A stretch of DNA of 50,082 bases from positions 1-50,082 of the IMG/VR virus record IMGVR_UViG_2703718827_000002. One strand, written 5' to 3'. Below are positions 1,256 to 39,587 of the stretch, piece by piece (the first letter of the stretch is position 1; every line of letters starts with the position of its first letter). This stretch comes from a virus. Lineage: Duplodnaviria > Heunggongvirae > Uroviricota > Caudoviricetes. Below the pieces are notes generated by a model that was not told where the DNA came from, made no database searches, and saw only the letters and a program-made list of their open reading frames with translations. The position numbers were made by a program, and so were the translations under genes.

Positions 1256-1325
1256 CCACCCTATTCAACCGATCGGCCTGGCATTACGCGGGCGGGATCT
1301 GCACATCCAAATTTCAGGAGAAACC

Positions 1326-2297: not shown

Positions 2298-2304
2298 GGC
2301 AACC

Positions 2305-2589: not shown

Positions 2590-2607
2590 TTTTTGAGGGG
2601 ATTAACG

Positions 2608-3453
2608 ATGGCAAACGAATTAACAATCACAGCGACGTCGCTTCAGGAGATAGGCGTCGACGTCTCCACCTGGAGCGCGCTGAAGAACAGCATCTACCCT
2701 GGCGCCAAAGACGAATCGGTAATGATGGCGCTTGATTACTGCCGCGCCCGCCAGTTGGATCCGTTGCTCAAACCTGTCCACCTCGTTCCGATGTACGTCA
2801 AAGACTCGAAAACAGGTAAAGGTGACTGGCGCGACGTGGTCATGCCTGGCATCGGGCTTTACCGCATTCAGGCAGACCGTTCCGGCGATTATGCCGGGGC
2901 TCGCGAGCCTGAGTTCGGGCCAGACACGACGCAGACACTTTCTGGTGTCGAGGTGACCTTCCCTCAGTGGTGCAAATACACCGTCTACAAGCGCATGCCC
3001 AGCGGCGAGATCGTCGAGTTCAGCGCCAAAGAATACTGGATTGAAAACTATGCCACCGCCGGCCGCGACACCACGGCGCCGAATGCAATGTGGAAAAAGC
3101 GCCCATACGGCCAGCTGGCGAAATGCGCAGAAGCCCAGGCGTTGCGTAAGGCATGGCCTGAGATTGGACAGCAGCCTACCGCCGAAGAAATGGAAGGCAA
3201 ATCACTGGACGTTGATATCCGTGACGTCACGCCGCGCAACACCACTGAAGCACTTCCACCAGCAGCAAGCGAAGAAACGCTGCAGGCGATAACCGATCTC
3301 TTAACGACACTGGATAAAGACTGGGAGAAAGACTTCCTCCCTGTGTGCAGAGACATCTTCAAACGGCCAATTCTTGAGGCGTCAGACCTCACTGAAGAAG
3401 AGGCACAGAAAGGGTTCAACTTCCTTCAGAAAAAAGCTAAGGCGGCAGCATGA
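2608..3453 (+). CDS. bet: RecT/Red-beta family single-strand annealing protein (Bet-like)
   Basis: C-terminal region closely matches lambda Bet (recalled); ATG at 2608 with GAGGGG RBS (track start 2593 is TTG); stop overlaps exo. Confidence 0.8.
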
Positions 3454-4130
3454 CACCCGAAATTATCCTGTCCCGGACTGGCATTGACGTAACCACGATC
3501 CAACAGGGCGACGAGGCATGGCACCGGCTGCGTCTCGGCGTCATTACTGCCTCTGAAGTGCATAACGTCATTTCCAAGCCGCGCTCCGGCACCAAATGGA
3601 CGGGCATGAAGATGTCCTACTTCCACACCCTACTCGCCGAGGTATGCACCGGCGTAGCACCAGAGGTTAATGCCAAGGCGTTGGCCTGGGGCAAGCAGTA
3701 CGAGGAAGACGCCCGCACCCTCTTCGAGTTCACCACTGACGTGAAAGTCACGGAGTCTCCGATCCTGTTCCGTGACGAGAGCATGCGCACCGCGTGCTCC
3801 CCTGACGGCCTTTGCAGTAACAATTTCGGCCTTGAGCTGAAATGCCCGTTCACCTCCCGCGACTTTATGAAATTCCGCCTCGGCGGTTTCGAAGCCATTA
3901 AGTCCGAGTACATGGCCCAGGTGCAGTACAGCATGTGGGTGACCGGAAAAGACGCCTGGTTCTTTGCCAACTACGACCCGCGCATGAAGCGCGAAGGTAT
4001 TCACCACGTCGTCGTTGAGCGGGACCCGCAGTACATGACCGATTTCAACGAAATGGTGCCGGAGTTCATTGAGAAGATGGACGAGGCGCTGGCAGAGATC
4101 GGCTTCACGTTCGGGGAACAGTGGAAATGA
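3450..4130 (+). CDS. exo: Lambda-type 5'-3' exonuclease (Red-alpha / YqaJ family)
   Basis: Sequence is near-collinear with recalled lambda Exo (MTPDIILQRTGIDV..., [24 protein letters not shown]). Confidence 0.9.
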
Positions 4131-4555
4131 AACGCACACCCTTTTACCGCCGGCCAGGGCGAACCGGGAAATTCTCCGGCCTCCGTGAGCGTGTTATCTG
4201 GATGATTCAGACGCGCGGCCGCCCGGTAACCGGCAGCGAAATCGCCGAGAAGTTTGGCGTAACGCTCATCGAGTTTAACCGGGTCGCCAACGGCATTACC
4301 CGCGGCACCGGGCAGATAGCGCAGGTCGTTGAGTCGAAAAAGTGGATCAACGAGGACGGCATTTGCGACCGGACATTCGACCTCGTCACGAAGCCTAAGG
4401 TCGTAACACCACAGGGCAAATCACGGCTATTCACCCGGCGCGCCATTGAGCAATCGCAGGAAGGCCGACGGCAGGAGTGCATTGAACGTGCCGCCCGCCG
4501 TAGTCGCCTGATTGCTCAGGGCCTCTACATCGACGAAATGGAGTCAGTGCTATGA
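4127..4555 (+). CDS. Hypothetical phage protein (142 aa)
   Basis: ATG at 4127 overlaps exo stop (ATGA); track ORF 4121..4555 starts at GTG. Confidence 0.5.
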
Positions 4556-4719
4556 AAGCGTGGTCTCTCGAAGAGCTGGCGCTGCTGTGGCGACACACAA
4601 ACGCTGAAGTCGCCGAGATTACTGTCCGCTGCATTGAAGAGGTAGGAGATAAGCGGCTGCAAACCAATATTGAGCGTAATGGCTGGGATGTAAACGATCC
4701 GGAGCGGGAGGCTGCATGA
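4552..4719 (+). CDS. Small hypothetical protein (55 aa)
   Basis: ATGA overlap with upstream stop; uninterrupted ORF; below track cutoff. Confidence 0.35.
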   Translation: MKAWSLEELALLWRHTNAEVAEITVRCIEEVGDKRLQTNIERNGWDVNDPEREAA

Positions 4720-4853
4720 CCGAAGGTATTGATCAGCTTATTTATAACGACGAGTTTCCCGGGATTGCGTACAACAAATTTACCGCCAGTTCTTTGGAAG
4801 GAAAAGTGGAAACCCGATCGGCAGGATGCACAGCAAGGGTTACTGGCGAATAG
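4716..4853 (+). CDS. Small ORF (45 aa), possibly the displaced 5' portion of the HNH gene
   Basis: ATG overlaps upstream stop; ends 28 nt inside the HNH ORF in another frame. Confidence 0.25.
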   Translation: MTEGIDQLIYNDEFPGIAYNKFTASSLEGKVETRSAGCTARVTGE

Positions 4854-5209
4854 CTTGCGGCAAGAAGTGCTATCTCGCCCATCGGCTGGCTTGGTTCTTC
4901 TGTTATGGGGTTTGGCCCAAAGAGATTGACCATATCGACAATAACAAGCTCAACAACTCCATCGGCAACCTACGTGAAGTCACCCACCAACTTAATCAAT
5001 TAAATATGCCACTGCGCAGTAATAACACGAGCGGTGTGAAAGGGGTTAATTGGGATAAGCATCGTAAGCGGTGGCGCGCCAGGGTGATTATTAACGGCAA
5101 GTATTTCACTGCCGGACACTTCAAGGAAATTGCAGATGCCGAGGTGGCAATCAGGGCACTCCGCGAGCAAGTCCATGGAGAATTTGCAAATCATGGGGGC
5201 AAGTCATGA
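4826..5209 (+). CDS. HNH homing endonuclease with AP2-like DNA-binding domain
   Basis: AHRLAW and IDHIDNNKLNNSIGNLR HNH motifs followed by SGVKGVNWDKHRKRWRARVIINGKYF AP2-like segment; upstream in-frame sequence also looks HNH-like. Confidence 0.7.
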   Translation: MHSKGYWRIACGKKCYLAHRLAWFFCYGVWPKEIDHIDNNKLNNSIGNLREVTHQLNQLNMPLRSNNTSGVKGVNWDKHRKRWRARVIINGKYFTAGHFKEIADAEVAIRALREQVHGEFANHGGKS

Positions 5210-5424
5210 CATCTGAAACAGACAACGCCGTACGCGCCGCCTGCCGCCGCTGCACCGAGGAAATCCAGCAGGCCATGCGCAAGAAGCCAAAGCCAAACTG
5301 GAACGAAACGGTGCCTCCAATCATCAACAAGCATCACAAGAAAATTGAATCTCTGGGAGTTAGCCTCCTGGAGTTTGTCGTCAAAACTGGCCGCCTTAAC
5401 GGGCGGTTTGGAGCCGAACAATGA
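5206..5424 (+). CDS. Hypothetical phage protein (72 aa)
   Basis: ATG overlaps HNH stop; GGGGG RBS. Confidence 0.45.
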   Translation: MTSETDNAVRAACRRCTEEIQQAMRKKPKPNWNETVPPIINKHHKKIESLGVSLLEFVVKTGRLNGRFGAEQ

Positions 5425-5515
5425 CAACAAAATTCCCCGGGTCGCTAAGTCGGCCCTTTTTATTGCTGGCGTTCACCTTCAACCGAATTAACCGACAGTT
5501 CCGGGAGCATTGACC

Positions 5516-5734
5516 ATGGACATCATCGACACAGCAGCAGAGATTGAAGAGCTTCAGCGTAACGCTGCCCTTTCCGCTCACCGCCTCAACCGTAACGCCG
5601 TATCAGCTGAGCGTTGTGAAGAATGCGACGAACCAATTTCCGAGCCGCGGCGCTCTGCCGTTCCCGGTTGCCAGACGTGCGCGGATTGCCAATCCGTCAT
5701 CGAGCTGAAGAATAAGCAGAGGGGAATCCAGTGA
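5516..5734 (+). CDS. TraR/DksA-family C4 zinc-finger protein
   Basis: CEECDEPI...CQTCADCQ four-cysteine motif near C-terminus; ATG at 5516 with GGGAG RBS (track start 5510 is TTG). Confidence 0.7.
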   Translation: MDIIDTAAEIEELQRNAALSAHRLNRNAVSAERCEECDEPISEPRRSAVPGCQTCADCQSVIELKNKQRGIQ

Positions 5735-6402
5735 AAGAGCGCGGAATGATTTTTAACGGCGAGATGGTGCGCGCCATCCTCGACGGCCGGAAGACGCAGA
5801 CGCGGCGCATCATGAAAATTCAGCCGTCTGATGGCTTCCACCCAACGCATAACGGTTACGATCTGGATTTAAACGCACACTGGTACACGCCTGGCGTGGT
5901 CGATAAAAACGGATACCTGCAGCCTGCAAAGAAAGATGTGTTTGGCGTTGCAGATGAGAATGAAGGCTACACCTGCCCGTTCGGTGCCGTCGGCGATCGC
6001 ATCTGGGTGCGCGAAACGTGGGCTGAAGCTGGTGCTGGCGCGCCGGACCTGAAACTTTATCGCGCGGATTATCCTGAGCACCTTCCAACTCATTACGAGA
6101 ATGTGCCGCCGGCTGATGAAATACGCTGGACGCCTTCGATTCACATGCCGCGCTGGGCCAGTCGTCTAACTCTGGAGATTACCGGCGTGCGTGTTGAGCG
6201 ACTTAGAGATCTGAGTGAGGACGATGCAAAGTCAGAAGGCATTACGCCGCCTTCCGGCGGGGTTCTTCCCGGATGGGAATATCGCATTAACTTCCGTGAC
6301 CTTTGGATGAGCATCTACGGTGCCGACAACTGGGAAGCTAACCCATGGGTTTGGGTTATCGAATTTAAGGTGGTGCCCAATGTTCAGGATAATCCAGCCT
6401 AA
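5731..6402 (+). CDS. ASCH-domain (PUA-like) protein
   Basis: N-terminal MIFNGEMVRAILDGRKTQTRR and C-terminal PWVWVIEFK resemble the ASCH signature (as in E. coli YqfB); GTG at 5731 overlaps upstream stop with AGAGGGG RBS; ATG at 5746 is an alternative start. Confidence 0.5.
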   Translation: MKERGMIFNGEMVRAILDGRKTQTRRIMKIQPSDGFHPTHNGYDLDLNAHWYTPGVVDKNGYLQPAKKDVFGVADENEGYTCPFGAVGDRIWVRETWAEAGAGAPDLKLYRADYPEHLPTHYENVPPADEIRWTPSIHMPRWASRLTLEITGVRVERLRDLSEDDAKSEGITPPSGGVLPGWEYRINFRDLWMSIYGADNWEANPWVWVIEFKVVPNVQDNPA

Positions 6403-6619
6403 TACCTGGTACGCCGATGATTTCGGCGCGCCATGCAAAATCCTCCGCGCTACCCACGAAGTAATCCACTACATCCGCAACGGCCGCACCTGCATTGCCA
6501 GCATGGGCCGCTTTAATCAGGATTTCGAGCCGCTGACCAAAGCAGAGGCCGAGCGGATCGCTGAAGAAATCGAAACAGCAGAACACCTGAAGAAGCTGCG
6601 TGCCCATCGCGCGGCGTAA
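6380..6619 (+). CDS. Hypothetical phage protein (79 aa)
   Basis: ATG at 6380 with AAGGTGG RBS inside track ORF 6320..6619. Confidence 0.45.
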   Translation: MFRIIQPNTWYADDFGAPCKILRATHEVIHYIRNGRTCIASMGRFNQDFEPLTKAEAERIAEEIETAEHLKKLRAHRAA

Positions 6620-6627
6620 GGAGAACT

Positions 6628-6858
6628 ATGAGCACCATTCAGGACATCCTAAACCAGCTATCAACCCTGGTCACCGAGGCGCACAAAGTGGCGTGCTCAC
6701 TCGATATTGGTGATGAGCGAACCGAGGCTTTCGAGCTATACGAAGCGCTTCGTCGACTTCAGCGGCAGGGCGCCGCCGGAGAGATTCTCTCAGCAACCAA
6801 CCCTCTTCTCGCCTCGCCATATTACGACGAGGACTGGGACGAAGATGGAGACGACTGA
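6628..6858 (+). CDS. Hypothetical acidic protein (76 aa)
   Basis: AAGGAG RBS; Asp/Glu-rich C-terminus. Confidence 0.45.
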   Translation: MSTIQDILNQLSTLVTEAHKVACSLDIGDERTEAFELYEALRRLQRQGAAGEILSATNPLLASPYYDEDWDEDGDD

Positions 6859-6923
6859 CGCAACTGATAGCCAGTTATGAGCTGGCTATTGGGTGCGAAT
6901 GCACTGCCACGTTATCCCCCTTT

Positions 6924-6950
6924 CAGCCCTCCATTGCGAGGGCTTCTTTT
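6924..6950 (+). terminator. Rho-independent terminator
   Basis: AGCCCTC-cattgc-GAGGGCT hairpin followed by TCTTTTT. Confidence 0.6.
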
Positions 6951-6965
6951 TGCCTGGAGACAGCT

Positions 6966-7181
6966 ATGAATGACAGTATCCTGCTTACCAGTGACGTACT
7001 GGCTCGCTATAAGATTTCCCGGAGCACTCTGTATTTCTGGAGCACCCCGGAGCGAATGCCTGCTGGCTTCACCTGCCCTTTCCCCAAACCAACAATCCCC
7101 GGCAACCCAAAACGCTGGAGAGAGTCGGAGATCGTTTCGTGGGAAATGCAGGTCAACGCCTCTAAAGCTGATACCCAATAA
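6966..7181 (+). CDS. AlpA-family excisionase / phage regulatory protein
   Basis: 71 aa; LARYKISRSTLYFW helix-turn-helix typical of AlpA/Xis-like proteins; convergent with and overlapping the 3' end of the integrase. Confidence 0.6.
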   Translation: MNDSILLTSDVLARYKISRSTLYFWSTPERMPAGFTCPFPKPTIPGNPKRWRESEIVSWEMQVNASKADTQ

Positions 7182-8343
7182 TGCTCTGCAGGTGATTCTG
7201 CCAAATACCCAACCACTCGCGCTGGTCATCCATATAGTCGTGCAGGTTGTATCTGGCCATCACCCCACCCATCTGATGACCAAGCAGCTTTTCAATAACA
7301 TGCGGTGGCGCGCCAAGTTCTGACAACCTGGTTGCAACGGTGCGCCTCAGGTCATGCAGAGACCACTGTTTCATGTCTGTCTTTCTGATCACCTGCATGG
7401 AATAGGTCGAGACTAGGGCCTGAGTAGGTGGAATGTCTTCTTTATCTCGGAACTGAGCCGGTGTTAAAACGTGCTTAGTGACCGAACCTCTTTTATGCTC
7501 CTGAAGCAGCCTGATCGCCACTTCAGGCAATGCCCTCCTGATCGTCTTCCCTGTTTTGTAATCCTCAGCCGGTACCGTCCAGGTCTTTTCATTAAAGTTG
7601 TACCAGTCCCAGCGCGATTTCCTTATTTCTGCAGCCCTGCACCCAGTCAGGAGCATGAACCGTATAACAAGTTGCTGTGATGGAGGGAGCGCGAAAAGTG
7701 TATCCCAAACCACTTTGATCTCTTCGTCGGAGAGTCGCCTCTCCTTCATCTTCGCTGCAATACCAACGTCTGATCTGCGCAAGGATTCAAGCGGGTTGTT
7801 TTTAATTACCCCTCGGTTATGGCAGAACCGGAACGCGCGCTTCATTAATGACAGCATCTCACCAGTAATAACCGAACGCCCCATCTCGTCGAACACATCA
7901 AGCCAGTTAGCCTTGAACGTCTGATCAACCATCGCCCTGCCAATGCGCGGGCTAATGTGCTTCTGAAAGCTCCTGGTATTGGCATCGATTTTGATCAGAC
8001 CCTCGGGAATGCAGTAATGCTTTACCCAGTACTCATACGCCTGGTCAACCGTTAGCGCCTCTATCCTTTCTGCTTTCTCAACCAGAACCTTCTGGCGTGG
8101 ATCGTAACCCTCACTCAGCCAGGCGCGAAACTGCTGCCTGCGGTCTCTTGCCTGCGCTAATGAATAGGCTGGGTATTCACCTATACTGAGTTGCACCGGC
8201 TTACCCTGCCAGCGATAACGGTAGAAGAAAGTTACGCCACCAGTTATGCTTAACCTGACATTAAGCCCGTTTGAATCTGAGAGAACTTCCACACTCTCTC
8301 TGCGCTTACCAAGCGCCTTACGAAGTTTTGTATCTGTGAGCAT
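7162..8343 (-). CDS. int: Tyrosine integrase (P4-type)
   Basis: C-terminal catalytic region with HDLRRT...LLGH...Y; N-terminal MLTDTKLRKA typical of P4-like integrases; ATG at 8343 with AGGGG RBS (track start 8352 is GTG). Confidence 0.85.
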   Translation of the reverse strand: MLTDTKLRKALGKRRESVEVLSDSNGLNVRLSITGGVTFFYRYRWQGKPVQLSIGEYPAYSLAQARDRRQQFRAWLSEGYDPRQKVLVEKAERIEALTVDQAYEYWVKHYCIPEGLIKIDANTRSFQKHISPRIGRAMVDQTFKANWLDVFDEMGRSVITGEMLSLMKRAFRFCHNRGVIKNNPLESLRRSDVGIAAKMKERRLSDEEIKVVWDTLFALPPSQQLVIRFMLLTGCRAAEIRKSRWDWYNFNEKTWTVPAEDYKTGKTIRRALPEVAIRLLQEHKRGSVTKHVLTPAQFRDKEDIPPTQALVSTYSMQVIRKTDMKQWSLHDLRRTVATRLSELGAPPHVIEKLLGHQMGGVMARYNLHDYMDDQREWLGIWQNHLQSIIGYQL

Positions 8344-8645
8344 CGTGTACACCCCTGAGCCATGTACTCAGCAGTGTACACAAAACACGTAAATTGCAAC
8401 CATACAAAATAAAACACGTTAAAGAGTTATAAACAATGAAGTGAGTAACGGCGCGGTTTTGGCGGGAATAATTTTAAACGCAATAAAACACGATAAAGCA
8501 GAACTCGTTGAAGTATTATGCCTCAGGAAGATAAATCCTAACCAGACTGCCAGTCCTTCGGGGCTGGCGCTGTATCTCCTCTGTTCTCCTCAGGAAAATC
8601 ATAGTAGCATCGCGCCTGTGATTTTCCTTTTAAGTCGGTTTTACC

Positions 8646-9044
8646 ATGTCTACAACACATAACGTCCCTCAGGGCGATCTTGTTTTACGTACTTTAGCCA
8701 TGCCCGCCGATACCAATGCCAATGGTGACATCTTTGGTGGTTGGTTAATGTCACAAATGGATATTGGCGGCGCTATTCTGGCAAAAGAAATTGCCCACGG
8801 TCGCGTAGTGACTGTGCGGGTTGAAGGAATGACTTTCTTACGGCCGGTTGCGGTCGGCGATGTGGTGTGCTGCTATGCACGCTGTGTCCAGAAAGGGACG
8901 ACATCGGTCAGCATTAATATTGAAGTGTGGGTGAAAAAAGTAGCGTCTGAACCAATTGGGCAACGCTATAAAGCGACAGAAGCATTATTTAAGTATGTCG
9001 CGGTTGATCCTGAAGGAAAACCTCGCGCCTTACCTGTTGAGTAA
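8646..9044 (+). CDS. yciA: Acyl-CoA thioesterase YciA
   Basis: 132-aa product matches recalled E. coli YciA along its length. Confidence 0.85.
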   Translation: MSTTHNVPQGDLVLRTLAMPADTNANGDIFGGWLMSQMDIGGAILAKEIAHGRVVTVRVEGMTFLRPVAVGDVVCCYARCVQKGTTSVSINIEVWVKKVASEPIGQRYKATEALFKYVAVDPEGKPRALPVE

Positions 9045-9047
9045 TAG

Positions 9048-9080
9048 TCAAAAGCCTCCGGTCGGAGGCTTTTGACTTTC
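9048..9080. terminator. Bidirectional terminator between convergent yciA and tonB
   Basis: Long inverted repeat TCAAAAGCCTCCG / CGGAGGCTTTTGA with A/T runs on both sides. Confidence 0.7.
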
Positions 9081-9083
9081 TGC

Positions 9084-9803
9084 TTACTGAATTTCGGTGG
9101 TGCCGTTAATTTTAAACAGGATATTCACCACAATCCCACTGCCTGGCTTACCCGGCTCATAACGCCATCTGCGCATCGCATTTTTCACCTCACGCTCAAA
9201 CATGTTCGCAGGCTTGGCTGAGAGGATTTGTACGTTATCCACGCGACCATCCGGCGTAACGTCAAATTTAACTTTAACCTGCCCTTCAATGCGCAATGCC
9301 TGTGCTCGTGCCGGATACTGCGGCTGATTACGGCTTAATGCGCGTGGTCCTGAAGCCACACTGGTAACCGGCTTGCTGGTTGCAGCCGTTGCTGTACTTG
9401 ATGTCAGGCGTGCCGGTGCCGTATTTTCAAACGGTGATGCCGGACGCGACTCTACGGGTTTGACATCGCGTTTTGGCTGCTCCTGTACCTTTTTCACCGG
9501 CTTCGGTTTTGGCTTAGGTTTCGGCTTCGGCTTTTCAATGACCACCGGTGCTTCTTTTGGCGGTTCGGGGATCGGCTCAGGTTCCGGTTCTGGCTCTACC
9601 ACCGGCTCCGGTGGCGGCTGAACGGCTTGTGGCGGTTCGAGATCAGCAGGCGTAACCATCGTGACAGAAATCGGCTGCGCAGGCGCAGGTAGTTCAATAA
9701 CCTGATGTACCGAGGTATAGAGCAGACCCGCCACAACAGCACCATGAATGCAGACCGAAAGTAACGTCGGCCAGGGGAAGCGGCGAGGTAAATCAAGGGT
9801 CAT
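9084..9803 (-). CDS. tonB: TonB energy-transducing protein
   Basis: MTLDLPRRFPWPTLLSV..., (EP)n and (KP)n repeats, C-terminal domain; 239 aa from ATG at 9803 (track ORF extends upstream to 9854). Confidence 0.9.
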   Translation of the reverse strand: MTLDLPRRFPWPTLLSVCIHGAVVAGLLYTSVHQVIELPAPAQPISVTMVTPADLEPPQAVQPPPEPVVEPEPEPEPIPEPPKEAPVVIEKPKPKPKPKPKPVKKVQEQPKRDVKPVESRPASPFENTAPARLTSSTATAATSKPVTSVASGPRALSRNQPQYPARAQALRIEGQVKVKFDVTPDGRVDNVQILSAKPANMFEREVKNAMRRWRYEPGKPGSGIVVNILFKINGTTEIQ

Positions 9804-10026
9804 TGAAGTCATAATCATTTCAGTAGAAAAACCAGGTCTCGATTTTAAATGCAAATAGCAATCATATTCAATAAGGCAAGACGATCAGGATCAGTGAAAA
9901 TGTCATTTTTGGCGTAATTACCCTTACTTTATGCATGGCCTTAACAAAGACATCATCTTTCCGTTGCAGATCTTCGCCCTTTCAAATAACGTACTTTACA
10001 ACTTTCCCGAACAAGGAGTTGTGCCC

Positions 10027-10323
10027 GTGTTGTATGTTATTTACGCTCAAGACAAAGCTGATAGCCTCGAAAAACGCCTTTCCGTTCGTCCGGCACATTT
10101 AGCACGTTTACAGTTACTGCATGATGAAGGTCGTTTGTTGACAGCTGGTCCAATGCCAGCGGTAGACAGTAACGATCCAGGGGCTGCGGGATTTACTGGC
10201 TCAACCGTTATTGCTGAATTTGAATCGCTGGAAGCAGCTCAGGCCTGGGCCGATGCTGACCCGTACGTAGCGGCAGGAGTCTATGAACACGTTTCAGTGA
10301 AACCATTTAAGAAAGTGTTCTAA
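10027..10323 (+). CDS. yciI: YciI-like protein
   Basis: 98-aa product from GTG start matching the recalled yciI neighbour of tonB; track ORF 9931..10323 extends upstream. Confidence 0.7.
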
Positions 10324-10387
10324 TTTATTAGAAATTTGCACTTAAATCAAAAAGTTACGGACAATTCAACCACCAATCAATAAATTA

Positions 10388-10430
10388 AAGGGCACATTAA
10401 AGTACACAATATTTGTGCCCTTCTCTGTTT
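10388..10430. terminator. Hairpin between yciI and the invertase gene (possible bidirectional terminator)
   Basis: AAGGGCACA ... TGTGCCCTT inverted repeat with T-rich flanks; loop is long, so weaker. Confidence 0.35.
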
Positions 10431-10441
10431 CTTTCCCGTTA

Positions 10442-10990
10442 TCAGCTAGCTGGAAACTTTTTATACAGAGTTGAGAGCCCTACTCCATACGTTTTTGATA
10501 CGCTTTGTCGTGATTCACCGGTTGCCATCCGCTCCCCCATTTCCCGCCATTGCTCATCCGTGAACTTAGGCCTGCGACCACCAACTCGCCCTTTTGCCCT
10601 GGCTACGGCCAGCCCTGCTAAGGTACGTTCGCTATTAAGATCAGATTCATATTGTGCTGCGGAAAGGATGTTACGAAAGTTATAGCGGCCGCTGGCTGTT
10701 TTGAGATCCACGCCATCGGTAATACTGCGGAAGTTGATACCCTTTTCCTGTAACTGCTGGAACATCAACAGCGCATGCAGAACGTTGCGGCCTATCCTGT
10801 CCAGCTTCCAGACCACCAGTTCATCCCCCGGCTGCATAGTGGCGATCAGCCGTTTTAGAACCGGCCGATTCGATTTCCTCCCGCTGGCATGCTCTTCAAA
10901 AATTTTCTCACAACCCGCTGACTTGAGCGCCGTTAGTTGCAATTCAGTGTCCTGGTGGTTTGTTGATACTCGGGCATAACCGTAAATCAT
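10442..10990 (-). CDS. Serine recombinase, Hin/Gin/Pin-type DNA invertase
   Basis: MIYGYARVSTNHQD...VVWKLDRIGR...C-terminal HTH GLSTLYKK; 182 aa; typical resolvase/invertase catalytic domain. Confidence 0.85.
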   Translation of the reverse strand: MIYGYARVSTNHQDTELQLTALKSAGCEKIFEEHASGRKSNRPVLKRLIATMQPGDELVVWKLDRIGRNVLHALLMFQQLQEKGINFRSITDGVDLKTASGRYNFRNILSAAQYESDLNSERTLAGLAVARAKGRVGGRRPKFTDEQWREMGERMATGESRQSVSKTYGVGLSTLYKKFPAS

Positions 10991-11194
10991 GAGTGCTTCT
11001 CCTGTTGTAAAAACAGGAGAAGAGGCGAAATATCACCTGATTCAGAAAAATATTTGAAAGGTTGGTTTGGGAGAAGCGGCAAAACGGGATGTGGGAACAG
11101 GGGAAAATCAGATACCGGATATGGCTTTTTTTGCCAGTGGTGATGGATGGATGAAATTACCCAACGGTAAAATCCTGCAATATGGTCGAGGTGC

Positions 11195-19605: not shown

Positions 19606-22600
19606 TTATGTGAGGCGTTGACTGGTGTTGAAGTTGTTGGTCAGTGCGTTGGAGAGTTTTCCTTTGCCGCTGGCGACGTCACTGACAGCCATGGCATAGC
19701 CCTGCTGCGCCCCGCGCTTGACTGCGGCCTCGAGCATGGCCAACTGCTGCTCAGTCGGATCCCCGTTAACCTGAATGACCGGGCTGTAACTGAACGCCCC
19801 GCCACCACCGCCCATATCGCGGTTACTGATGACGCGACCGTTATCGCCGGGGATCATGTACTGCTTGCCGGTGCTGGCCTGGTAAATCTCTGGCTTACCT
19901 TTCTCGCCGACCTGATACAGGCCACCGGCTGATACCGGTCCGCCATTGTACCGCGCTCCCGCTATTGAAAGGGCCTGCGCCATGCCAACTGTTGAAGCTA
20001 TTCCCGCCTGTGCCGGCACTGCATTCGCGCCAGCAGTTGCAAGAGATGTCATTGCGGCTGCAGGGGCCATGGAAGCGGCGATTAGCTGCCCTTGCGCAAT
20101 AGCCATTCCAGAAGCGGCGGTCATGCCAGCCTGACCCATAATTACAGACTTCAACCACTCAACCCCCATCTGAACAAAGGAGTTGATGACGCTGTTAAGT
20201 ACCGTCGAGCCTAGCGACCGCATAGCTTCGCTGACAGACATGCTGCCAGTGATTATGCCAGTGAGGGCGTTGGAGGCGTTTCCAGCAAATGAATCAAACG
20301 CCGCGGCAGCTACTTCATATCCTGCATTTTGTTGTCGCCATATCTCCCACTGCGCCGCTATGCGCTGTTGCTCGTACTGAGTGTTAGCGGCATTCATCAG
20401 CTCAAGTCCGCGCTGAGTAATCTGCCCCTTCTGCGATTCAAACTGCTGGATTAGAGCCAACTCCTGCGCGTGCTGGTTAGCCAGCTGTTGGACAGGGTCA
20501 ATCTGCCCCCGAGCTTCCTGCATGGGGCTTACAGTTTGCTGAGCGCGTATCTTAGCCAGATTAACCTGGTGCTGAGCCTCCAGTTGCTCACTGGTCTGAT
20601 TGTACTGCTGCTGAGTGATTTTTTTGGCGGCCAGTGCAGTTTGCAGATCTTTAACATCCTGCTGGTAAGACGCATTCTCTCTGGCTTCAGGGAGCAGTTT
20701 TTCTGCCGCAGCCTGGGCTTTGAGGGCATTAGCCGTATCCCATATTTCTCCACGGTATTTACCGGCAAGAGCAATTTGCTCTTGGGTGGCTCCCTTACCT
20801 AGTGATTGCTGAGCCTGTAATACTGCCTGCTCCCGGCTTAACTCCTGCGTTGAGCCAGCAGCGAGCTCTGATTGCTGGCGCAGATTTTCAAGTTTTTGGT
20901 TTACCGATTCCTGCTGGTTAGCAAGTTTCTTAGCCTCAGATTCCGCTTCCTTGGTGGCCTTTTTGTTATTTTGCTGCGCTTGTTGAGCATCGAATTCAGC
21001 TGCTGCTCTGTCACGAGCAAGGTTAACATCCGCCTCTGATCCACCGAGTTTCCTAATGTCCTGCTCAGCCCTTAATTGCGCTCGCTTCCTGTCATTAAGC
21101 TCGCTCTGAAGTGTTACCTGATCCTGTAGCTTATCCAGATACTCCTGAACATCTTTCGGGCGTTCAATCATGAGGCTGCTGGAGTTGAATTTGTCTTTTG
21201 CCTTGGCCGCAAAATTAATCATATCTCCCAACTTGCTCATCATGCCGGCAGCAATTCCCGCTTCCTGCCCATCCCTGCGCAGCAAATCGATACCTTGCTT
21301 CATCGTTCCGTTTAGCGTAGCGCGGCCAATGTTAATGGCGTTTTGGGTCTGACTCAGTCTGTTCTGGGCCTTCTCCAGCTCAAGGGTAGCTATAGCTAGG
21401 TTATCCTGTGCGCCGCTAAGCGCCTCGGCAGCCTGCCGCCCTCTCGTTGTATTCGTACCCCAGTTTGCAATTTCTCGCTGCTGTCGCTGGACAGCCGATG
21501 TCGCGTCATTGAATTCCTTTTGTGCGTCTGATACCGCGTCACTTAATTCAGGCAGGCTTTGGCTTAGCTTTCCTATCGTTGCCGCCAGCTCTGTATGCGA
21601 CATCGTCTGGAATTTTGAGCTCAGATCGTTAACGCTATCTGCAAGGGCATTAGCGTCATTCCTGGCCTCTTTTGCGCGCTGTGAAAAGTAAAGGATTGCA
21701 CTAGCAGCAAGCATTGCCGCTCCGGCAGGCCCACCAATTAACCCGAGAGCCCTGCTAGCCAGGCTGGCACCAGATGAGAGAGCCATTTGAGCAGCCCTGT
21801 TTGCCGCCAGTGCTCGATTATAATTATCAACCGCACCGGCAGCCGCAACCCTGGCAACGGACAAGCGCTGTTCAGCTGCCGCAGCGTTGGTTTCGCTGAT
21901 AGCAGTAAGGCGCATCATTTCTGCGAGCCTTATCTCATCTAAGGCCCGTTGTTTTGCGACCGCTGCAGCCCTGAGGTCTGCCGCTGCTTTATTCGCGGAA
22001 GCCTGAGCTGCTAATGATTCTTCTGCTGAAAGCATGCGTGATGCGGCAGCTGCTTTGATTTTAGCCGCAGTAGCCATAGTTAAGGCGCCGACATACCGAC
22101 TCCCAAGAATAGCCGCGGCACCAGTCAGCAACGCGCTCAGTCCGCCAATATTCTCACTGATGGTGACCACTGCATCACTAAAAATTGCCGCGCCTGTTTT
22201 AACCGTAGAATTTTCACCGAAGAACTTAGTGATGTTATTGCCAGCAACCTGAAGAGCCTGGCTGATAGTCGTAGTGGTGTTGGCAAATTCAGCACCGATT
22301 AAACTCCCCTGGGAAAGCAGACCGTTAACCACAACATCTGTCGTTAGCTTGCCCTGTGCCGCCATGTTGCGCATCTGGCCGATGCTGACCCCCATAGAGT
22401 CAGCAAGGGCTACGATAAGGCGGTTACCCTGCTCGTTTACAGAGTTGAATTCCTCGCCGCGTAAAGCTCCAGAAGCAAGGCCCTGAGATAGCTGAATAAT
22501 CGCGTTCTCGGCCTCTTGCGCCGTGGCACCTGATACAACGAACCCTTGGTTTATAATTGTGGTTAACTTCGCCAGATCATCTGCGCTGGTCCCGTACTGC

Positions 22601-22980
22601 CTGGTTGCCCTTTCTAGTCTTGCGTAGAGGGATGCCGTTGCATCTAAACTACTGCGAGTTTGCTGAGTAATGTTGAAAACCCGCTCGGTTACATCGGCAA
22701 GTTGTTCTGATGGGCGAATAGAGTTTGATAATTTATTGTTAACAGTAGCCCACGCATCAGCGTATTCAGCCACCTGCTGAACTGACAATGCCGCGGTGAG
22801 CGCAACCGCTACACGTGACAGACTCGACATTGAACGCTCAGTAGTATCAATTGAGCGCGTTGTTTTATCAAAGCCGCGCTCCATCAGATCAAGGCGCTGA
22901 TTAACGCGCTGCTGAGCAGTAAGTAGCCCGCGCACATCCATTTCAATGTCGTAATAAATACCGCCAGCGTTCTCAGCCAT
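19606..22980 (-). CDS. Tail tape measure protein
   Basis: 1124 aa, Ala/Gln-rich coiled-coil-like composition, Gly-rich C-terminal region, position between chaperone and tail tip genes. Confidence 0.85.
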   Translation of the reverse strand: MAENAGGIYYDIEMDVRGLLTAQQRVNQRLDLMERGFDKTTRSIDTTERSMSSLSRVAVALTAALSVQQVAEYADAWATVNNKLSNSIRPSEQLADVTERVFNITQQTRSSLDATASLYARLERATRQYGTSADDLAKLTTIINQGFVVSGATAQEAENAIIQLSQGLASGALRGEEFNSVNEQGNRLIVALADSMGVSIGQMRNMAAQGKLTTDVVVNGLLSQGSLIGAEFANTTTTISQALQVAGNNITKFFGENSTVKTGAAIFSDAVVTISENIGGLSALLTGAAAILGSRYVGALTMATAAKIKAAAASRMLSAEESLAAQASANKAAADLRAAAVAKQRALDEIRLAEMMRLTAISETNAAAAEQRLSVARVAAAGAVDNYNRALAANRAAQMALSSGASLASRALGLIGGPAGAAMLAASAILYFSQRAKEARNDANALADSVNDLSSKFQTMSHTELAATIGKLSQSLPELSDAVSDAQKEFNDATSAVQRQQREIANWGTNTTRGRQAAEALSGAQDNLAIATLELEKAQNRLSQTQNAINIGRATLNGTMKQGIDLLRRDGQEAGIAAGMMSKLGDMINFAAKAKDKFNSSSLMIERPKDVQEYLDKLQDQVTLQSELNDRKRAQLRAEQDIRKLGGSEADVNLARDRAAAEFDAQQAQQNNKKATKEAESEAKKLANQQESVNQKLENLRQQSELAAGSTQELSREQAVLQAQQSLGKGATQEQIALAGKYRGEIWDTANALKAQAAAEKLLPEARENASYQQDVKDLQTALAAKKITQQQYNQTSEQLEAQHQVNLAKIRAQQTVSPMQEARGQIDPVQQLANQHAQELALIQQFESQKGQITQRGLELMNAANTQYEQQRIAAQWEIWRQQNAGYEVAAAAFDSFAGNASNALTGIITGSMSVSEAMRSLGSTVLNSVINSFVQMGVEWLKSVIMGQAGMTAASGMAIAQGQLIAASMAPAAAMTSLATAGANAVPAQAGIASTVGMAQALSIAGARYNGGPVSAGGLYQVGEKGKPEIYQASTGKQYMIPGDNGRVISNRDMGGGGGAFSYSPVIQVNGDPTEQQLAMLEAAVKRGAQQGYAMAVSDVASGKGKLSNALTNNFNTSQRLT

Positions 22981-22995: not shown

Positions 22996-23020
22996 AATAA
23001 AAAACCCCGCCGGAGCGAGG
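22996..23020 (-). terminator. Terminator-like hairpin plus T-run immediately upstream of the tape measure start
   Basis: On - strand: CCTCGC-TCCG-GCGGGG (one G-U pair) followed by TTTTTT; same family as the 15128 and 32005 elements. Confidence 0.5.
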
Positions 23021-23039
23021 TCTATAACATGGAACTTGG

Positions 23040-23420
23040 TTAGTTTAGGAGGCCTGATTTAACTTCTGTATTTGAATTATTAAATAAGTAATTATCTACA
23101 ATATCGCCCTTAAACACGATTATAAGCTGCTTCATGTTGGTAGTAGCGCCGTTATCAAATAGTCCATAGATGGGAATAAATGCTTTCCCGCTGACCTGTG
23201 TGTTTGTGAAAACATAGTGCCACTGTTCTTTCCCATCACTGGAGATTGATACCCCAGTTGGATCTCCATATGCAGCCTTAACCTCTTGCTTCGTCGTCTT
23301 TCCTTTGATTATTTTACTCTGAATGCCAATCTGCGTTTCTTGCTCAATCGACTTATTGCCGCCAGAAGCACAACCGGCAAGTACAACCGCTATTGCTGCA
23401 ACCAATAGAACCTTTTTCAT
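23040..23420 (-). CDS. Lipoprotein with BamE (SmpA/OmlA)-like fold signature
   Basis: MKKVLLVAAIAVVLAGC lipobox; KQEVKAAYGDP...EQWHYVF resembles the BamE motif; ATG 23420 with GGGGA RBS (track start 23480). Confidence 0.6.
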   Translation of the reverse strand: MKKVLLVAAIAVVLAGCASGGNKSIEQETQIGIQSKIIKGKTTKQEVKAAYGDPTGVSISSDGKEQWHYVFTNTQVSGKAFIPIYGLFDNGATTNMKQLIIVFKGDIVDNYLFNNSNTEVKSGLLN

Positions 23421-23560
23421 ATCCCTATCCCCATCAGTAAATGATGCGGCAATCGTAGCAGAGGGGAAGCGATACGACAAAGCAACCTGTTCGCTTATCA
23501 GGATGTTCAGCGGTACGATAGCAAGGTAGCCTTGAAGCAGGCATCAACCAAGGAATCATC

Positions 23561-24034
23561 ATGGATAAGTTTGACCGTAAACTTCAGCGAGAAATACTAC
23601 AGGCTTGCGTAGATAGCTATCCAGCCGCACCTCTTCTCGAACAATTTAACCTTACGGAAGTAGCAGAATGTGCAGAAAGCAACATTCAGAAGCTATTAGC
23701 TAACATAAATTACCTGTGCGAACACGGACTAATTAAAAATAACAGCTCCATTATTCTTAAGGACCGCTCCATCCTCACCCGGATCACCGCAACAGCAAAA
23801 GGCATCGACTTCATGCTCAATGATGGTGGTCTATCAGCGATCCTGAACGTCCAGACTATAAAGCTTCATCGTGACTCAGTGGTCGTACTCGAAGACCTGA
23901 TCGCCATTTCAAACATGAACGACGAGCAGAAGGAAAAAGCCAAGTCGACTCTCGGCGAAATGTCGACGGAAGCCATTAAAACCGTGGTGCAAGCCGTGAC
24001 GACTGCAGGGTTATCAAAGCTGCTCGGGCAATGA
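23561..24034 (+). CDS. Hypothetical protein (157 aa), opposite strand to the late operon
   Basis: AAGGAA RBS; divergent from the lipoprotein gene, convergent with the Panacea operon; no family recognised. Confidence 0.5.
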   Translation: MDKFDRKLQREILQACVDSYPAAPLLEQFNLTEVAECAESNIQKLLANINYLCEHGLIKNNSSIILKDRSILTRITATAKGIDFMLNDGGLSAILNVQTIKLHRDSVVVLEDLIAISNMNDEQKEKAKSTLGEMSTEAIKTVVQAVTTAGLSKLLGQ

Positions 24035-24050
24035 AGCAACCCTTCAAAGC

Positions 24051-24078
24051 AAAAAAACCACCAACGGTGGGTTTTTGC
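24051..24078. terminator. Bidirectional rho-independent terminator
   Basis: AAAAAAACCACC-AACG-GTGGGTTTTT between convergent genes. Confidence 0.7.
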
Positions 24079-24531
24079 TTAGGTTCCTGTCAATCCATCA
24101 TCTGGCTCAGGCTGATCAATTAACTGAGCATTGGTGCAGTATCTTTCTTTGAACCTTATCATCTTCGGTTTTGCTTGTTCCGAAATGTCAAAACCAGACA
24201 GAATTCTGTCAAAAACAGCTTCAGCCATATCGTCATGAGTCGTAACTTCGCCAGCTGCGTGTTTTCTTTCTAAATTATCAATGCGCCAAATTACAGCTTC
24301 AGCATAAACGATATAGCTTGGATGTTGGATAAACCTGTGATCACCAGGTTGGAGAACACATGCGTCATCATGCGGCACGCCAGGCTTAATGCTTGACACA
24401 TTAACAACCAATATACAGTAACAGTCGTTAACTGGATAATAAACAGGATCGTTGCATATCACATGAAGATGATTGCATGGCCCACTTGGAGCCAAAACCG
24501 TTCCTTTTCGATAAGGTTGAAATGTGCTCAT
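24079..24531 (-). CDS. Hypothetical protein (150 aa), candidate effector/toxin partner of the Panacea gene
   Basis: ATG overlaps the Panacea stop (ATGA coupling); no family recognised; several Cys/His residues. Confidence 0.5.
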   Translation of the reverse strand: MSTFQPYRKGTVLAPSGPCNHLHVICNDPVYYPVNDCYCILVVNVSSIKPGVPHDDACVLQPGDHRFIQHPSYIVYAEAVIWRIDNLERKHAAGEVTTHDDMAEAVFDRILSGFDISEQAKPKMIRFKERYCTNAQLIDQPEPDDGLTGT

Positions 24532-25100
24532 GACAATTGAGAAGAAAACTCCTTAAGTTCTTGTGACTCACGCATACTCCTAAGTATATTCTCTACTTCT
24601 TCAGGAGTTTTCCCAGCATCGATAAATATTTCACGTACATCTATAAGAGTTCGTGAGCCATGCGGGTCATGCCACTCAGGGCAAACGTTTCTAAGATGAG
24701 TCATATCGCGCAATTCATATCTGTTCATATGCCCATATTGTGCATATATTTCATCCAAAATGCGGATATCTGCCCTGCTCAATTCATCGAAGACTTCATC
24801 AGCGTCCATCTCACGAGGGTCGGTTCGTAAGCAGACGTCATGATGATCGGTTTTTATCAAACGATACCAGTAGTCACCATCAATGTCAGCGCGACCACGA
24901 ATCAGATCCAGTGTAGTTGACATAACCGGACCGTGGGGCATTGAGTAAAGCTTGTCTTCACCCATCATGCGACCATGGCGAATCATTGACTGCCGGTTTG
25001 CCAAGTATAGCAGCTTCATAAGCTTCAGATATGCCATGCGCCCGCCGCGTTTAAGTAGCAGGTAAGCAGCCATCTGAGCCACTTTTTCTTCGCTAAACAT
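24528..25100 (-). CDS. Panacea-domain (DUF4065) protein, PanA/SocA-like antitoxin candidate
   Basis: N-terminal VAQMAAYLLLKRGGRMAYLKLMKLLYLANR...MPHGPV matches the DUF4065 signature; ATG 25100 with GAGG RBS (track start 25112 is TTG); AT-rich upstream region. Confidence 0.6.
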   Translation of the reverse strand: MFSEEKVAQMAAYLLLKRGGRMAYLKLMKLLYLANRQSMIRHGRMMGEDKLYSMPHGPVMSTTLDLIRGRADIDGDYWYRLIKTDHHDVCLRTDPREMDADEVFDELSRADIRILDEIYAQYGHMNRYELRDMTHLRNVCPEWHDPHGSRTLIDVREIFIDAGKTPEEVENILRSMRESQELKEFSSQLS

Positions 25101-25169
25101 ATTGAACCTCAATCACTTACAAAATACAGAACGGAAAATTGATGTATACATATCGTTTTATTGATTCTG

Positions 25170-25198
25170 AGTTTATTACCTCAAGGTCAATCCTTCAA
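25170..25198 (-). promoter_or_regulatory. Candidate sigma70 promoter for the Panacea operon
   Basis: On - strand: TTGAAG, 17-bp spacer, TAAACT, about 70 nt upstream of the ATG, within an AT-rich intergenic region. Confidence 0.3.
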
Positions 25199-25410
25199 CC
25201 TTTGGTTGAATCTAGCGCGTTCAAAATAGCCTTAAATGTCACTCAAAAAAGCACAAAATAGACGTGTACCAGGACACACCTCAAATCATCGCCTCTTGTA
25301 GCGCTTCTGGCTTCGTTTTAGAGGGGGTTAAATCGATCTCACATTTTGTGCGGTATGTGCCATCGATCACGCACAGTATCATTCTGACAATAAAATCACC
25401 CTTGAGTACT

Positions 25411-26109
25411 CTATCTCTCCTGCTCCATCATCGCCTGTCTGCGCTTACGGCGCGTAAAGTAGTCATCAGCTGCGTGATCGTACTCTTCGCGGGTGTACCC
25501 TTTCTGCTCAGGGTACTTAGCGATGAGCATTAGCTGAAACTCGGTCATCGTCAGTTGTCCGGCCTCTTCCTTGCTGATACCGAAGTGGTTCCGCGCTGCG
25601 ATGATGTAATCTGATGCCCGGAATTCAGATGTTGTATCACTGGATTCGTGCCGCTGGAGCTTTCTAATTTTCGCTTTACCGATGATGCCGTGCATCATCA
25701 GACTTTTGGCGACGATCACCATGCTTTCTGGCGGCATGGTGCCCGGGCGCCAGACGAAGCTACGCTTGCGTGATTTCCCGGGCTTCATCCAGCCAACCAG
25801 ATCGCCGATATCATCGTTACAGCACGCCGTAAGCACCGTATGCGCTGCCATGATGGCCTTGCGTGACAGGAGCCCGCTTTGCATAAACCTCAGGACACAA
25901 TCTGGAAAGCGGCTGTACTCATCGCGTATATAGGCCTCAGCTGCACGCTGTGCGAATGGTGTCGTCTCGTCATTGCACAGGTCATAGAACGCCTGAACGA
26001 TTTCAGCCGGATCGCCAATTCGCGACATGGCAAGCAGTGACGGGCGGAAGAAATAATCCCTGTCTCCGGCAGTAATGACGCATTCGCCAAACTCTTTAAC
26101 TGGTGTCAT
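25411..26109 (-). CDS. Putative tail assembly chaperone (G/GT position)
   Basis: Position between major tail and tape measure; N-terminal GDRDYFFRP resembles chaperone motif; single 232-aa ORF with no visible frameshift partner. Confidence 0.45.
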   Translation of the reverse strand: MTPVKEFGECVITAGDRDYFFRPSLLAMSRIGDPAEIVQAFYDLCNDETTPFAQRAAEAYIRDEYSRFPDCVLRFMQSGLLSRKAIMAAHTVLTACCNDDIGDLVGWMKPGKSRKRSFVWRPGTMPPESMVIVAKSLMMHGIIGKAKIRKLQRHESSDTTSEFRASDYIIAARNHFGISKEEAGQLTMTEFQLMLIAKYPEQKGYTREEYDHAADDYFTRRKRRQAMMEQER

Positions 26110-26159: not shown

Positions 26160-26912
26160 TTATGCTGTAACCGTTACCGTGTGAGTTGCGGTAAATGCGC
26201 CGTCGTCAGTAGTTACAGTGATCACCGCGGTGCCTGCAGTAGCGCCAGAAGGGGCGGATACTGTTACCGTATTACCTGAGAAGGCCACCGTAGCGCGCGC
26301 AGGCACGGAAGACGAAACAGTAAATACCTTGTCGTCCGCATCTGCTGGCGCAATGTTCACAGTGAAGGTTGTGCTTGAACCTGCCGCAATCGTGCTGGTT
26401 GTTGGCGTTACGGTCACGCCTGTAACGGGAATGCCATCATCAGCTTCAGTAATCTGGAAGGTGTTACCGTCAGCCAGTTTGAACTCAAAGCTGTATGTCA
26501 CGATCTCCTTCACACCACCGCCATCACTGGCGCCGGTCGGGACCATGTAGCCAATGTGGTAAAAGTCACCCCAATGGAAGCGCATCCAGACAGCAGGTTG
26601 ACGGCGGGCGCGAACTTCATCAGCGATATATTTCACGAATTGCTGAATGCCGAATTCATCAGTTCGGTCTTTAACTCGCACCTCTCCCTCAATGGAATAG
26701 GTGGGATCAAGACTGGCAATCAGGTTAGAACTGAATCCGCCGTTATCCGCATCTGATGTCAGCGCTTCGGGGCTCATATCCCAGGTTGCCGAAGTCGGCA
26801 GCCCCATAAGCTTCCAGTCCCCTTCTGCCGGAACCTGGTCAGCACATCCATACGCTAGCTCAAGCGTCTTAGCGCGACCGATAAGTTGTTCGTTATTGGA
26901 GCAGCCTTGCAT
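26160..26912 (-). CDS. Major tail protein with C-terminal Ig-like (Big_2-type) domain
   Basis: C-terminal Thr/Val/Ala-rich beta-sandwich-like segment typical of Ig-like decoration on major tail proteins; position. Confidence 0.7.
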   Translation of the reverse strand: MQGCSNNEQLIGRAKTLELAYGCADQVPAEGDWKLMGLPTSATWDMSPEALTSDADNGGFSSNLIASLDPTYSIEGEVRVKDRTDEFGIQQFVKYIADEVRARRQPAVWMRFHWGDFYHIGYMVPTGASDGGGVKEIVTYSFEFKLADGNTFQITEADDGIPVTGVTVTPTTSTIAAGSSTTFTVNIAPADADDKVFTVSSSVPARATVAFSGNTVTVSAPSGATAGTAVITVTTDDGAFTATHTVTVTA

Positions 26913-39511: not shown

Positions 39512-39587
39512 TGGTGCTGATTGACGGAGTTGAACCGCCGACATCCTGCTTACAAGGCAGGCGCTCTACCTACTGAGCTAAATCAGC
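39512..39587 (-). tRNA. tRNA-Thr (anticodon TGT), phage-encoded
   Basis: Hand-folded cloverleaf: 7-bp acceptor stem GCTGATT/AATCAGC, D-arm GCTC/GAGC, anticodon arm CCTGC-CTTGTAA-GCAGG, T-arm GGCGG-TTCAACT-CCGTC, 3' ACCA; differs from recalled host tRNA-Thr. Confidence 0.8.

Follow-up and report, generated by a model that had tools for sequence, protein, structure and literature searches.

What are two small, overlapping genes doing in the middle of a phage tail gene cluster? The question is raised by a 50,082-nucleotide stretch of viral DNA (IMG/VR record IMGVR_UViG_2703718827_000002, Caudoviricetes; the window, below, means this whole stretch), where a minus-strand gene pair, here named panA and panT, is found between the DUF6246 gene and the tape measure gene. 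The answer reached here, which we hold to be very probable, is that the pair forms a type II toxin-antitoxin (TA) module of the PanAT kind (toxin cluster T6) and makes up an autonomous cargo cassette (moron) in the tail region of a Klebsiella-type siphovirus prophage. An initial annotation of this DNA had proposed a Panacea antitoxin and toxin operon as prophage cargo, and that proposal is supported by the PF13274 match of PanA, by T6 homology, and by gene linkage. The present analysis establishes the domain, the fold, the homology to a validated pair, the strict linkage of the two genes, and their movement from one cargo slot to another, while toxicity, rescue, complex formation, and translation-specific inhibition come from the published pair, which is 43-45% identical.

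The Gene Pair and Its Panacea Domain

Both of the overlapping minus-strand open reading frames (ORFs) described earlier, with their ATGA junction, are present (Table 1); the TGA stop of panA (24530-24528) overlaps the ATG of panT (24531-24529). The ORF list opens panA at a TTG at 25112 (24528-25112). Homologues open with MFSEEKVAQ or IFSEQKVAQ, and a GAGG Shine-Dalgarno sequence (25110-25107) is found six bases 5′ of the ATG at 25100, so panA is best read from this ATG. Neither gene is a chance ORF, given the hundreds of identical copies (exact sequence matches on 709 contigs for the PanA protein and 668 for PanT) and the conservation of the pair across bacterial orders.

The DUF4065/Panacea signature claimed for the first gene product was checked with a hidden Markov model and confirmed. 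PF13274 (SocA_Panacea/DUF4065) matches residues 27-136 of PanA with 73.5 bits against a cut-off of 25.7 (E 3.4e-20). PanA consists of a standalone Panacea domain followed by a C-terminal tail of ~50 amino acids, and it carries the signature H56-G57-P58-V59, of which residues 57-59 form the GPV motif that has been reported to be critical for neutralization by Panacea. The identical protein is named 'Panacea domain-containing protein / SocA family protein' at NCBI, and the NCBIfam equivalog for SocA itself, NF047745, scores 17 bits with a cut-off of 190. PanA is 45% identical over its full length to the PanA proteins of Pseudomonas atacamensis and Pseudomonas sp. NFIX28. Searching by sequence returned no solved structure of any PanA relative.

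A Large Toxin Family with a Predicted MazF-Type Fold

The 150-amino-acid PanT protein had been described as belonging to no recognized family. As far as sequence libraries go this description stands: PanT finds no match in Pfam, NCBIfam, or PADLOC, its sole PHROGs match is phrog_19071 (function not known), and a word-indexed search returned 46 clusters, every one of them from Enterobacterales and named 'hypothetical.' It no longer holds once fold and T6 homology are considered, as both of these place the protein. A profile search of a library of representatives at 50% identity returned 2,612 relatives with a threshold of E≤1e-3 and 863 with one of E≤1e-10, and by this measure PanT is a member of a large family that has no Pfam model.

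A confident AlphaFold2 model of PanT built from 35 homologues (predicted local distance difference test score, pLDDT, 89; predicted template-modeling score, pTM, 0.82) has five main strands followed by three helices, with a C-terminal tail that is disordered from about residue 134. When this model was used as a Foldseek query, the first 50 matches were all MazF/PemK-type toxins with a probability of 0.97-1.00, and on the strength of these matches PanT is predicted to have the CcdB/MazF (SH3-like barrel) fold, that is, the fold of MazF, PemK, and CcdB. Sequence searches of the PDB with PanT-family profiles of 35 and 81 sequences gave no identification.

Conservation was tallied over 81 diverse members of the PanT family. 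H21 and Ser/Thr47 are present in 81/81, C58, H65, Y76, and G113 in 80/81 each, and D55, F67, and L22 in 79/81 each. Position 72 is Ser in 76 and Thr in 5 of the 81, and S117 is Ser in 75/81. The several Cys and His residues of PanT had been singled out as notable, which is borne out for H21, C58, and H65 and does not extend to the remaining ones: H23, C26, C37, H70, and C132 vary outside the Enterobacterales subgroup. A zinc site or structural Cys-His cluster was considered and is unlikely, as only H21, C58, and H65 are kept across the family. The catalytic Arg and Thr of E. coli MazF are R29 and T52. In the PanT model, S/T47 lies at the end of the long central strand and H21 at the start of strand 2. 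It may be guessed from the order of secondary-structure elements that H21 and S/T47 occupy the places of the MazF Arg and Thr.

Relationship to the Validated T6 Pairs

Kurata et al. 2022 (PNAS, PMC8832971) surveyed the gene neighborhoods of DUF4065, named the domain Panacea, and sorted its partner toxins into 88 clusters. Cluster T6 includes a pair from Pseudomonas moraviensis whose toxin carries the HHpred label 'EndoA/PemK/MazF-family RNases.' The P. moraviensis T6 PanT is toxic and is neutralized by its PanA, the two proteins copurify in a pull-down, and the toxin selectively blocks 35S-methionine incorporation (PMC8832971). Further T6 rows in Dataset S1 of the same paper come from Pantoea septica, Pluralibacter, Photorhabdus, Yersiniaceae, and P. 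reinekei (strain BS3776), as well as from Proteus vulgaris FDAARGOS_556 (GCF_003812525.1), where the antitoxin gene precedes the toxin gene with a 4-base overlap.

Two ties connect the window pair with this cluster. One runs through Proteus, where a toxin (P0236) 57% identical to PanT is encoded by a gene that has a 4-base overlap with the Panacea gene in each of three prophages of GCA_003812525.1 (FDAARGOS_556). The source name of the protein, 'MULTISPECIES: hypothetical protein [Proteus],' fits the T6 row, and the identification of P0236 with that row rests on assembly, position, overlap, and name, not on WP_072063026.1 itself. The FDAARGOS_556 chromosome (CP033736.1) contains three identical PanAT copies in three prophage-like regions.

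The other tie runs through Pseudomonas. IFSEQKVAQ is the N terminus that Kurata et al. restored for P. moraviensis PanA (PMC8832971), and a genome-wide search for it found matches in P. atacamensis, P. reinekei, and Pseudomonas sp. NFIX28. P. moraviensis itself is absent from these matches, and the link runs via the three other strains. A genome-wide search with a DNA pattern of the PanA N terminus that included an ATG start had no match; the pattern without a start codon found the three Pseudomonas loci, where panA has GTG or TTG at this place. In all three, an overlapping gene of 132-134 amino acids comes after the Panacea gene, and its product is 41-44% identical to PanT (E 1e-34 to 1e-37). 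The toxin of P. reinekei strain MT1 has 41% identity (E 1e-35). The P. atacamensis toxin is 43% identical and starts with MPGNIL, which is the start encoded by the published forward primer for P. moraviensis PanT. A look among the retrieved proteins for P. moraviensis PanT by its MPGNIL start or its IRQNNF end gave none.

Because of the Proteus and Pseudomonas ties, the window pair is a full-length co-orthologue of a validated PanAT system, and by homology PanT is assigned to toxin cluster T6. The initial annotation had raised the possibility of a new effector. With its predicted MazF/PemK/CcdB fold and a validated T6 relative in Pseudomonas, the effector is already of a known kind, and the pair is a prophage-borne addition to the validated PanAT family.

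The likeness to the P. moraviensis T6 system extends over the whole locus, with the same antitoxin-then-toxin order and stop/start overlap, a standalone Panacea domain with the N-terminal M/I-FSE-E/Q-KVAQ and the GPV signature, and a toxin of ~133-150 amino acids that has the motif set HLH...VVN-SS...D-xC-L-xG-H-F...S-xxY. The P. atacamensis pair is near-orthologous (PanA 45% and PanT 43% identical to the window proteins). Dataset S1 marks the P. moraviensis entry as 'NotPhage' (PMC8832971), whereas the window copy is prophage-borne and inside a tail gene cluster, and the window PanT has an extra disordered C-terminal tail of ~17 amino acids that is found only in its closest relatives.

Other known systems are more distant. 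Unlike the toxins of MazEF and Kis-Kid (PemIK), PanT has no detectable PF02452 similarity and differs in its putative active-site residues, and the window antitoxin is a Panacea protein whereas theirs are the AbrB- or ribbon-helix-helix-type DNA-binding MazE and Kis. SocAB of Caulobacter crescentus (type VI) is the founding case of a Panacea/DUF4065 antitoxin and shares this domain with the window pair; however, SocB belongs to toxin cluster T10, and SocA acts as an adaptor for ClpXP, in contrast to the stable complex made by T6 pairs.

A Mobile, Self-Contained Cassette

In all of the intact loci inspected (~40), the gene directly 5′ of the toxin homologue is a Panacea gene. Loci of Pantoea, Yersinia, Hafnia, Proteus, Betaproteobacteria, Magnetococcus, and Pseudomonas have the two genes overlapping by 4 bases as they do here, save for a few with a 1-base overlap or a gap of 2 bases. 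The ATGA overlap points to translational coupling of panT to panA.

What surrounds the pair varies from locus to locus. In eight Klebsiella-type prophages and in Klebsiella phage ST13-OXA48phi12.5, panAT lies in the gap that separates the DUF6246 gene from the tape measure gene. In Pantoea lambdoid prophages it is directly downstream of a cI-type repressor gene, in Yersinia lambda-like prophages it is between tail genes K and I, and in a P2-like Hafnia element it is between ParM/StbB and ogr/portal. It is placed beside int in E. coli phage Lys8385Vzw, beside the portal gene in Pseudomonas phage Sirocco, and beside a LexA-like repressor gene in a tailless Vibrio Vinavirales element. At Proteus prophage ends it is found by tail fiber genes, and in some loci by Abi_2, S8 peptidase, and ABC-ATPase genes. 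A betaproteobacterial metagenome-assembled genome and Magnetococcus carry it in nonphage surroundings. The same pair thus occurs in >10 genera with unrelated flanks. As the neighboring genes differ between loci, panAT must travel as one unit and does not belong to the tail; it is a self-contained cassette in sites where temperate phages keep lysogen-expressed cargo.

Lambdoid phages have morons and lysogen-expressed exclusion cassettes such as rexAB of lambda, which lies downstream of cI. The window cassette resembles lambdoid morons and rexAB in having a self-contained promoter region, genes, and terminator, with a deviant guanine-plus-cytosine (GC) content, between late genes, and the Pantoea panAT holds the same position downstream of cI as rexAB does. 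The proteins are unrelated to those of rexAB.

Some additional loci were encountered in the course of this comparison. Serratia plymuthica CP065747.1 has a toxin homologue (72% identical; 4001-4438 of its locus extract) with a replaced N terminus that overlaps an integrase fragment and has no Panacea gene; this orphan toxin is probably a decayed remnant. In Sirocco (OR683410.1), the toxin homologue (1501-1863 of its locus extract), 3′ of a 558-bp gene in the Panacea position, is itself unannotated, and a 135-nt ORF on the opposite strand is annotated across it. Other Proteus and Providencia PanAT loci resemble a defense island at the prophage end (Abi_2, S8 peptidase, ABC-ATPase).

Signals for Expression

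The bidirectional terminator proposed for the unit is borne out by a 13-base hairpin with the stem CCACC/GGTGG and T-runs on each strand. The AT-rich region 5′ of the pair is likewise real (Table 1), and it belongs to a wider tract in which GC is 40-47% across 23000-25400, compared with 52-59% in the flanks. A scan found a terminator-like hairpin at 25281-25260, 3′ of the DUF6246 gene. A candidate sigma-70 promoter was found by eye 5′ of panA, with an 8/12 match that is below the scan threshold (TTGAAG 25198-25193, a 17-nt spacer, and TAAACT 25175-25170), and both hexamers are kept in ST13-OXA48phi12.5. The palindrome ATGTATACAT at 25151-25142 was considered as an operator and dropped, as it is not conserved in ST13-OXA48phi12.5. 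The low GC, terminator, and long upstream spacer fit a moron.

How the Cassette May Work

In the mechanism proposed here, PanA would be translated first, with the ATGA overlap coupling the translation of panT, and PanA would bind PanT directly and render it inactive. PanT that is free of PanA would arrest growth by halting protein synthesis, and would most likely do so as an endoribonuclease with mRNA, tRNA, or rRNA as its substrate. A weak promoter of its own would drive the cassette in the lysogen, with transcription stopping at the bidirectional terminator, and in lytic growth late transcription would read through it. The prophage might benefit in one of two ways. Superinfecting phages could be aborted or excluded when PanA is lost or senses a cue, or the host could be addicted to the prophage; the benefit is probably abortive infection/exclusion or addiction. 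Ernits et al. 2023 (PMC10440598) put forward the hypothesis that Panacea senses unknown activating cues. That temperate phages of very different kinds constantly carry the pair in slots for lysogen-expressed cargo is what raises the possibility of abortive infection. It is a rather doubtful, tentative extension of these ideas that T6 PanT represents a mechanistically distinct branch of the MazF fold, with other catalysis or another RNA target, and that PanAT is an uncatalogued abortive-infection system in which Panacea is the sensor.

A number of results weigh against a PanAT module with these properties. PF02452 (PemK_toxin) has no match on PanT at E up to 0.1, and across the 81 family members it reaches E 0.11 at best, in 1/81. 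Aligning the PanT family by hhalign with E. coli MazF, or with a five-sequence MazF/Kid/ChpBK profile, gave a probability of <1%. Because no link to MazF/PemK was reproduced at the sequence level, the RNase assignment rests on the fold and the published HHpred result. MazF/PemK toxins are sequence-specific, ribosome-independent endoribonucleases, and what is published for the T6 homologue is translation-specific inhibition. The conserved set H21, S/T47, D55, C58, H65, and Y76 is not obviously MazF-like, and because these residues are unlike the Arg/Thr pair of MazF, the chemistry or the target of PanT may differ. Eight of the 25 PanTs tested by Kurata et al. were nontoxic in E. coli (PMC8832971), so toxicity of this panT allele is not guaranteed. 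A consensus scan 5′ of panA found no sigma-70 site of ≥9/12, and hence no strong promoter; of the cassette's own promoter, as claimed earlier, the 8/12 candidate is what stands. With a limit of E 0.1, neither PanA and PanT nor the products of the two neighboring genes had a match in PADLOC-DB v2.0.0, a silence that says nothing about an uncatalogued defense role of panAT. Finally, neither PMC8832971 nor PMC10440598 reports a phage-challenge test of T6 pairs.

Other accounts of the locus have to be compared with the PanAT module. The orientation of panAT, which is that of the tail genes, its place in the DUF6246-to-tape-measure gap, and its weak promoter candidate would all suit a virion or tail-assembly accessory, such as a chaperone pair, that is expressed only from the late operon. 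This is barely credible for a cassette that is also found by cI in Pantoea, by int in Lys8385Vzw, by partition genes in Hafnia, in tailless Vinavirales, and on nonphage chromosomes; the distribution over unrelated contexts rules out a role in tail assembly. Close relatives of this phage lack panAT at the same slot, and the low GC and private terminator of the pair also argue against such a role. A three-gene system is very unlikely as well. In such a system the convergent 157-amino-acid protein, which has a MarR/PadR-like winged-helix N-terminal domain, would be a required regulator or trigger of PanAT. Its gene faces panT tail-to-tail here, as it does in ST13-OXA48phi12.5 (60% identical), in all eight Klebsiella-type loci, and, at a different tail slot, in a Yersinia prophage (51% identical). 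However, in like-for-like single-sequence searches the 157-amino-acid family has at least 208 clusters compared with 46 for the close Enterobacterales toxin subgroup. It is found without PanAT, 3′ of an Arc/Mnt or HTH-S24 repressor gene and divergent from a P22-type antirepressor gene, and PanAT for its part lacks this neighbor in Pantoea, Hafnia, Proteus, Pseudomonas, and others. Two genes suffice for the validated Pseudomonas pair (PMC8832971). Since each family is found without the other, the 157-amino-acid gene was rejected as a third PanAT component.

The remaining alternatives keep the two genes together and change what they do. If the phage PanA served counterdefense by neutralizing a toxin encoded by the host, PanT would be secondary. 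Panacea can be evolved to neutralize noncognate toxins, as has been published, and read-through from the late operon would raise PanA in lytic growth. Against this, PanA and PanT are strictly coinherited and diverge together (45%/39% identity with ST13-OXA48phi12.5 and 45%/43% with Pseudomonas), and the literature reports cognate-toxin specificity for natural PanAs; we give counterdefense very little chance. It is somewhat less improbable, though still a small minority prospect, that PanA is an antitoxin and PanT either poisons gyrase in the manner of CcdB or is some other non-RNase toxin with the SH3-like barrel. CcdB of the F plasmid poisons gyrase, whereas the T6 homologue inhibits translation, and the antitoxins of CcdAB and PanAT are unrelated.

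With the T6 PanAT module as the preferred account, two hypothetical proteins on hundreds of Klebsiella and other Enterobacteriaceae contigs become annotatable as a TA pair with a validated relative. The analysis also flags a MazF-fold family (2,612 representatives at 50% identity) that is without a Pfam model and has noncanonical conserved residues. The occurrence of the same pair in rex-like, int-proximal, P2-hotspot, and intra-tail slots offers a natural test case for Panacea systems. It bears on whether such pairs serve phage defense, with the antitoxin as the sensor, or are no more than addiction elements.

The Cargo Slot and Its Other Genes

The placement of the pair between a chaperone-slot gene and the tape measure gene is as first described, with the qualification that it does not directly adjoin the latter, as the 157-amino-acid gene and a lipoprotein gene intervene (Table 1). 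The position had been thought to be one that is normally free of cargo. In fact, each relative examined from this lineage has different cargo there. Phage vB_Kpn_RAH1 has an antirepressor gene and three small genes in the same gap, and other relatives have VasI-like genes, P22-type antirepressors with HTH-S24 or Arc/Mnt repressors, Bro-N genes, lipoprotein genes, or LexA-like genes. The DUF6246-to-tape-measure gap is a hypervariable cargo hotspot in this siphovirus lineage.

Table 1 Features of the panAT locus in the window
Feature	Position	Strand	Remark
Major tail protein gene	26160-26912	-	
DUF6246 protein gene, chaperone slot	25411-26109	-	PF19759, E 5.5e-79
Low-GC spacer 5′ of panA, 310 bp	25101-25410	-	GC 41%
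panA	24528-25100	-	190 aa; ATG at 25100
ATGA overlap, panA stop/panT start	24528-24531	-	Read from sequence
panT	24079-24531	-	150 aa
Bidirectional intrinsic terminator	24058-24070	both	Common to panAT and the convergent 157-aa gene
Convergent 157-aa gene	23561-24034	+	
Lipoprotein gene, 126 aa	23040-23420	-	
Tape measure gene	19606-22980	-	

In one relative, a 160-amino-acid homologue of the convergent gene product is encoded by a gene that abuts the DUF6246 gene with no PanAT between them, and PanAT therefore sits at the convergent-terminator junction. The comparison with ST13-OXA48phi12.5 gives an indication of how alleles are exchanged at this slot. DNA identity with the window, at 80%, is found only across 25006-25443 (6545-6974 of its locus extract), a segment made up of the last part of the DUF6246 gene, the spacer, and ~95 bases at the start of panA. 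Protein identity is 45% for the remainder of panA and 39% for all of panT. This suggests replacement of the whole allele by recombination anchored on the conserved 5′ end of panA.

The 157-amino-acid protein belongs to phrog_3983 and has a weak DUF2513 match in addition to its winged-helix domain. Homologues of the gene in related phages are found directly 3′ of an Arc/Mnt or HTH-S24 repressor gene and divergent from a P22-type antirepressor gene. In the window the gene stands alone, as if left over from an antirepressor module, and it is an independent winged-helix gene. The 126-amino-acid lipoprotein has a lipobox signal, a borderline match to the BamE domain, and a weak match to the PHROG of the Cor superinfection-exclusion protein. 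Its gene is found with 99% DNA identity in Klebsiella phage RAH1 and several E. coli chromosomes, which marks it as separate cargo that moves independently of PanAT.

Other Features of the Window

At the left end of the window are genes for RecT (2593-3453), a tyrosine integrase (7162-8352), and TonB (9084-9854), and a resolvase-type invertase gene (10442-10990) adjoins the tail fiber genes. From positions 1-11000, the window seems to include the end of a prophage, a gene of the host, and a portion of a second mobile element. A tRNA-Thr gene (anticodon TGT), found by both ARAGORN and Rfam, lies inside the prophage at 39512-39587 on the minus strand. In the immunity region, a YdaT_toxin-family gene (48312-48854, minus strand; PF06254, E 5e-28) is divergent from the gene for a cI-like HTH-S24 repressor (49105-49899, plus strand).

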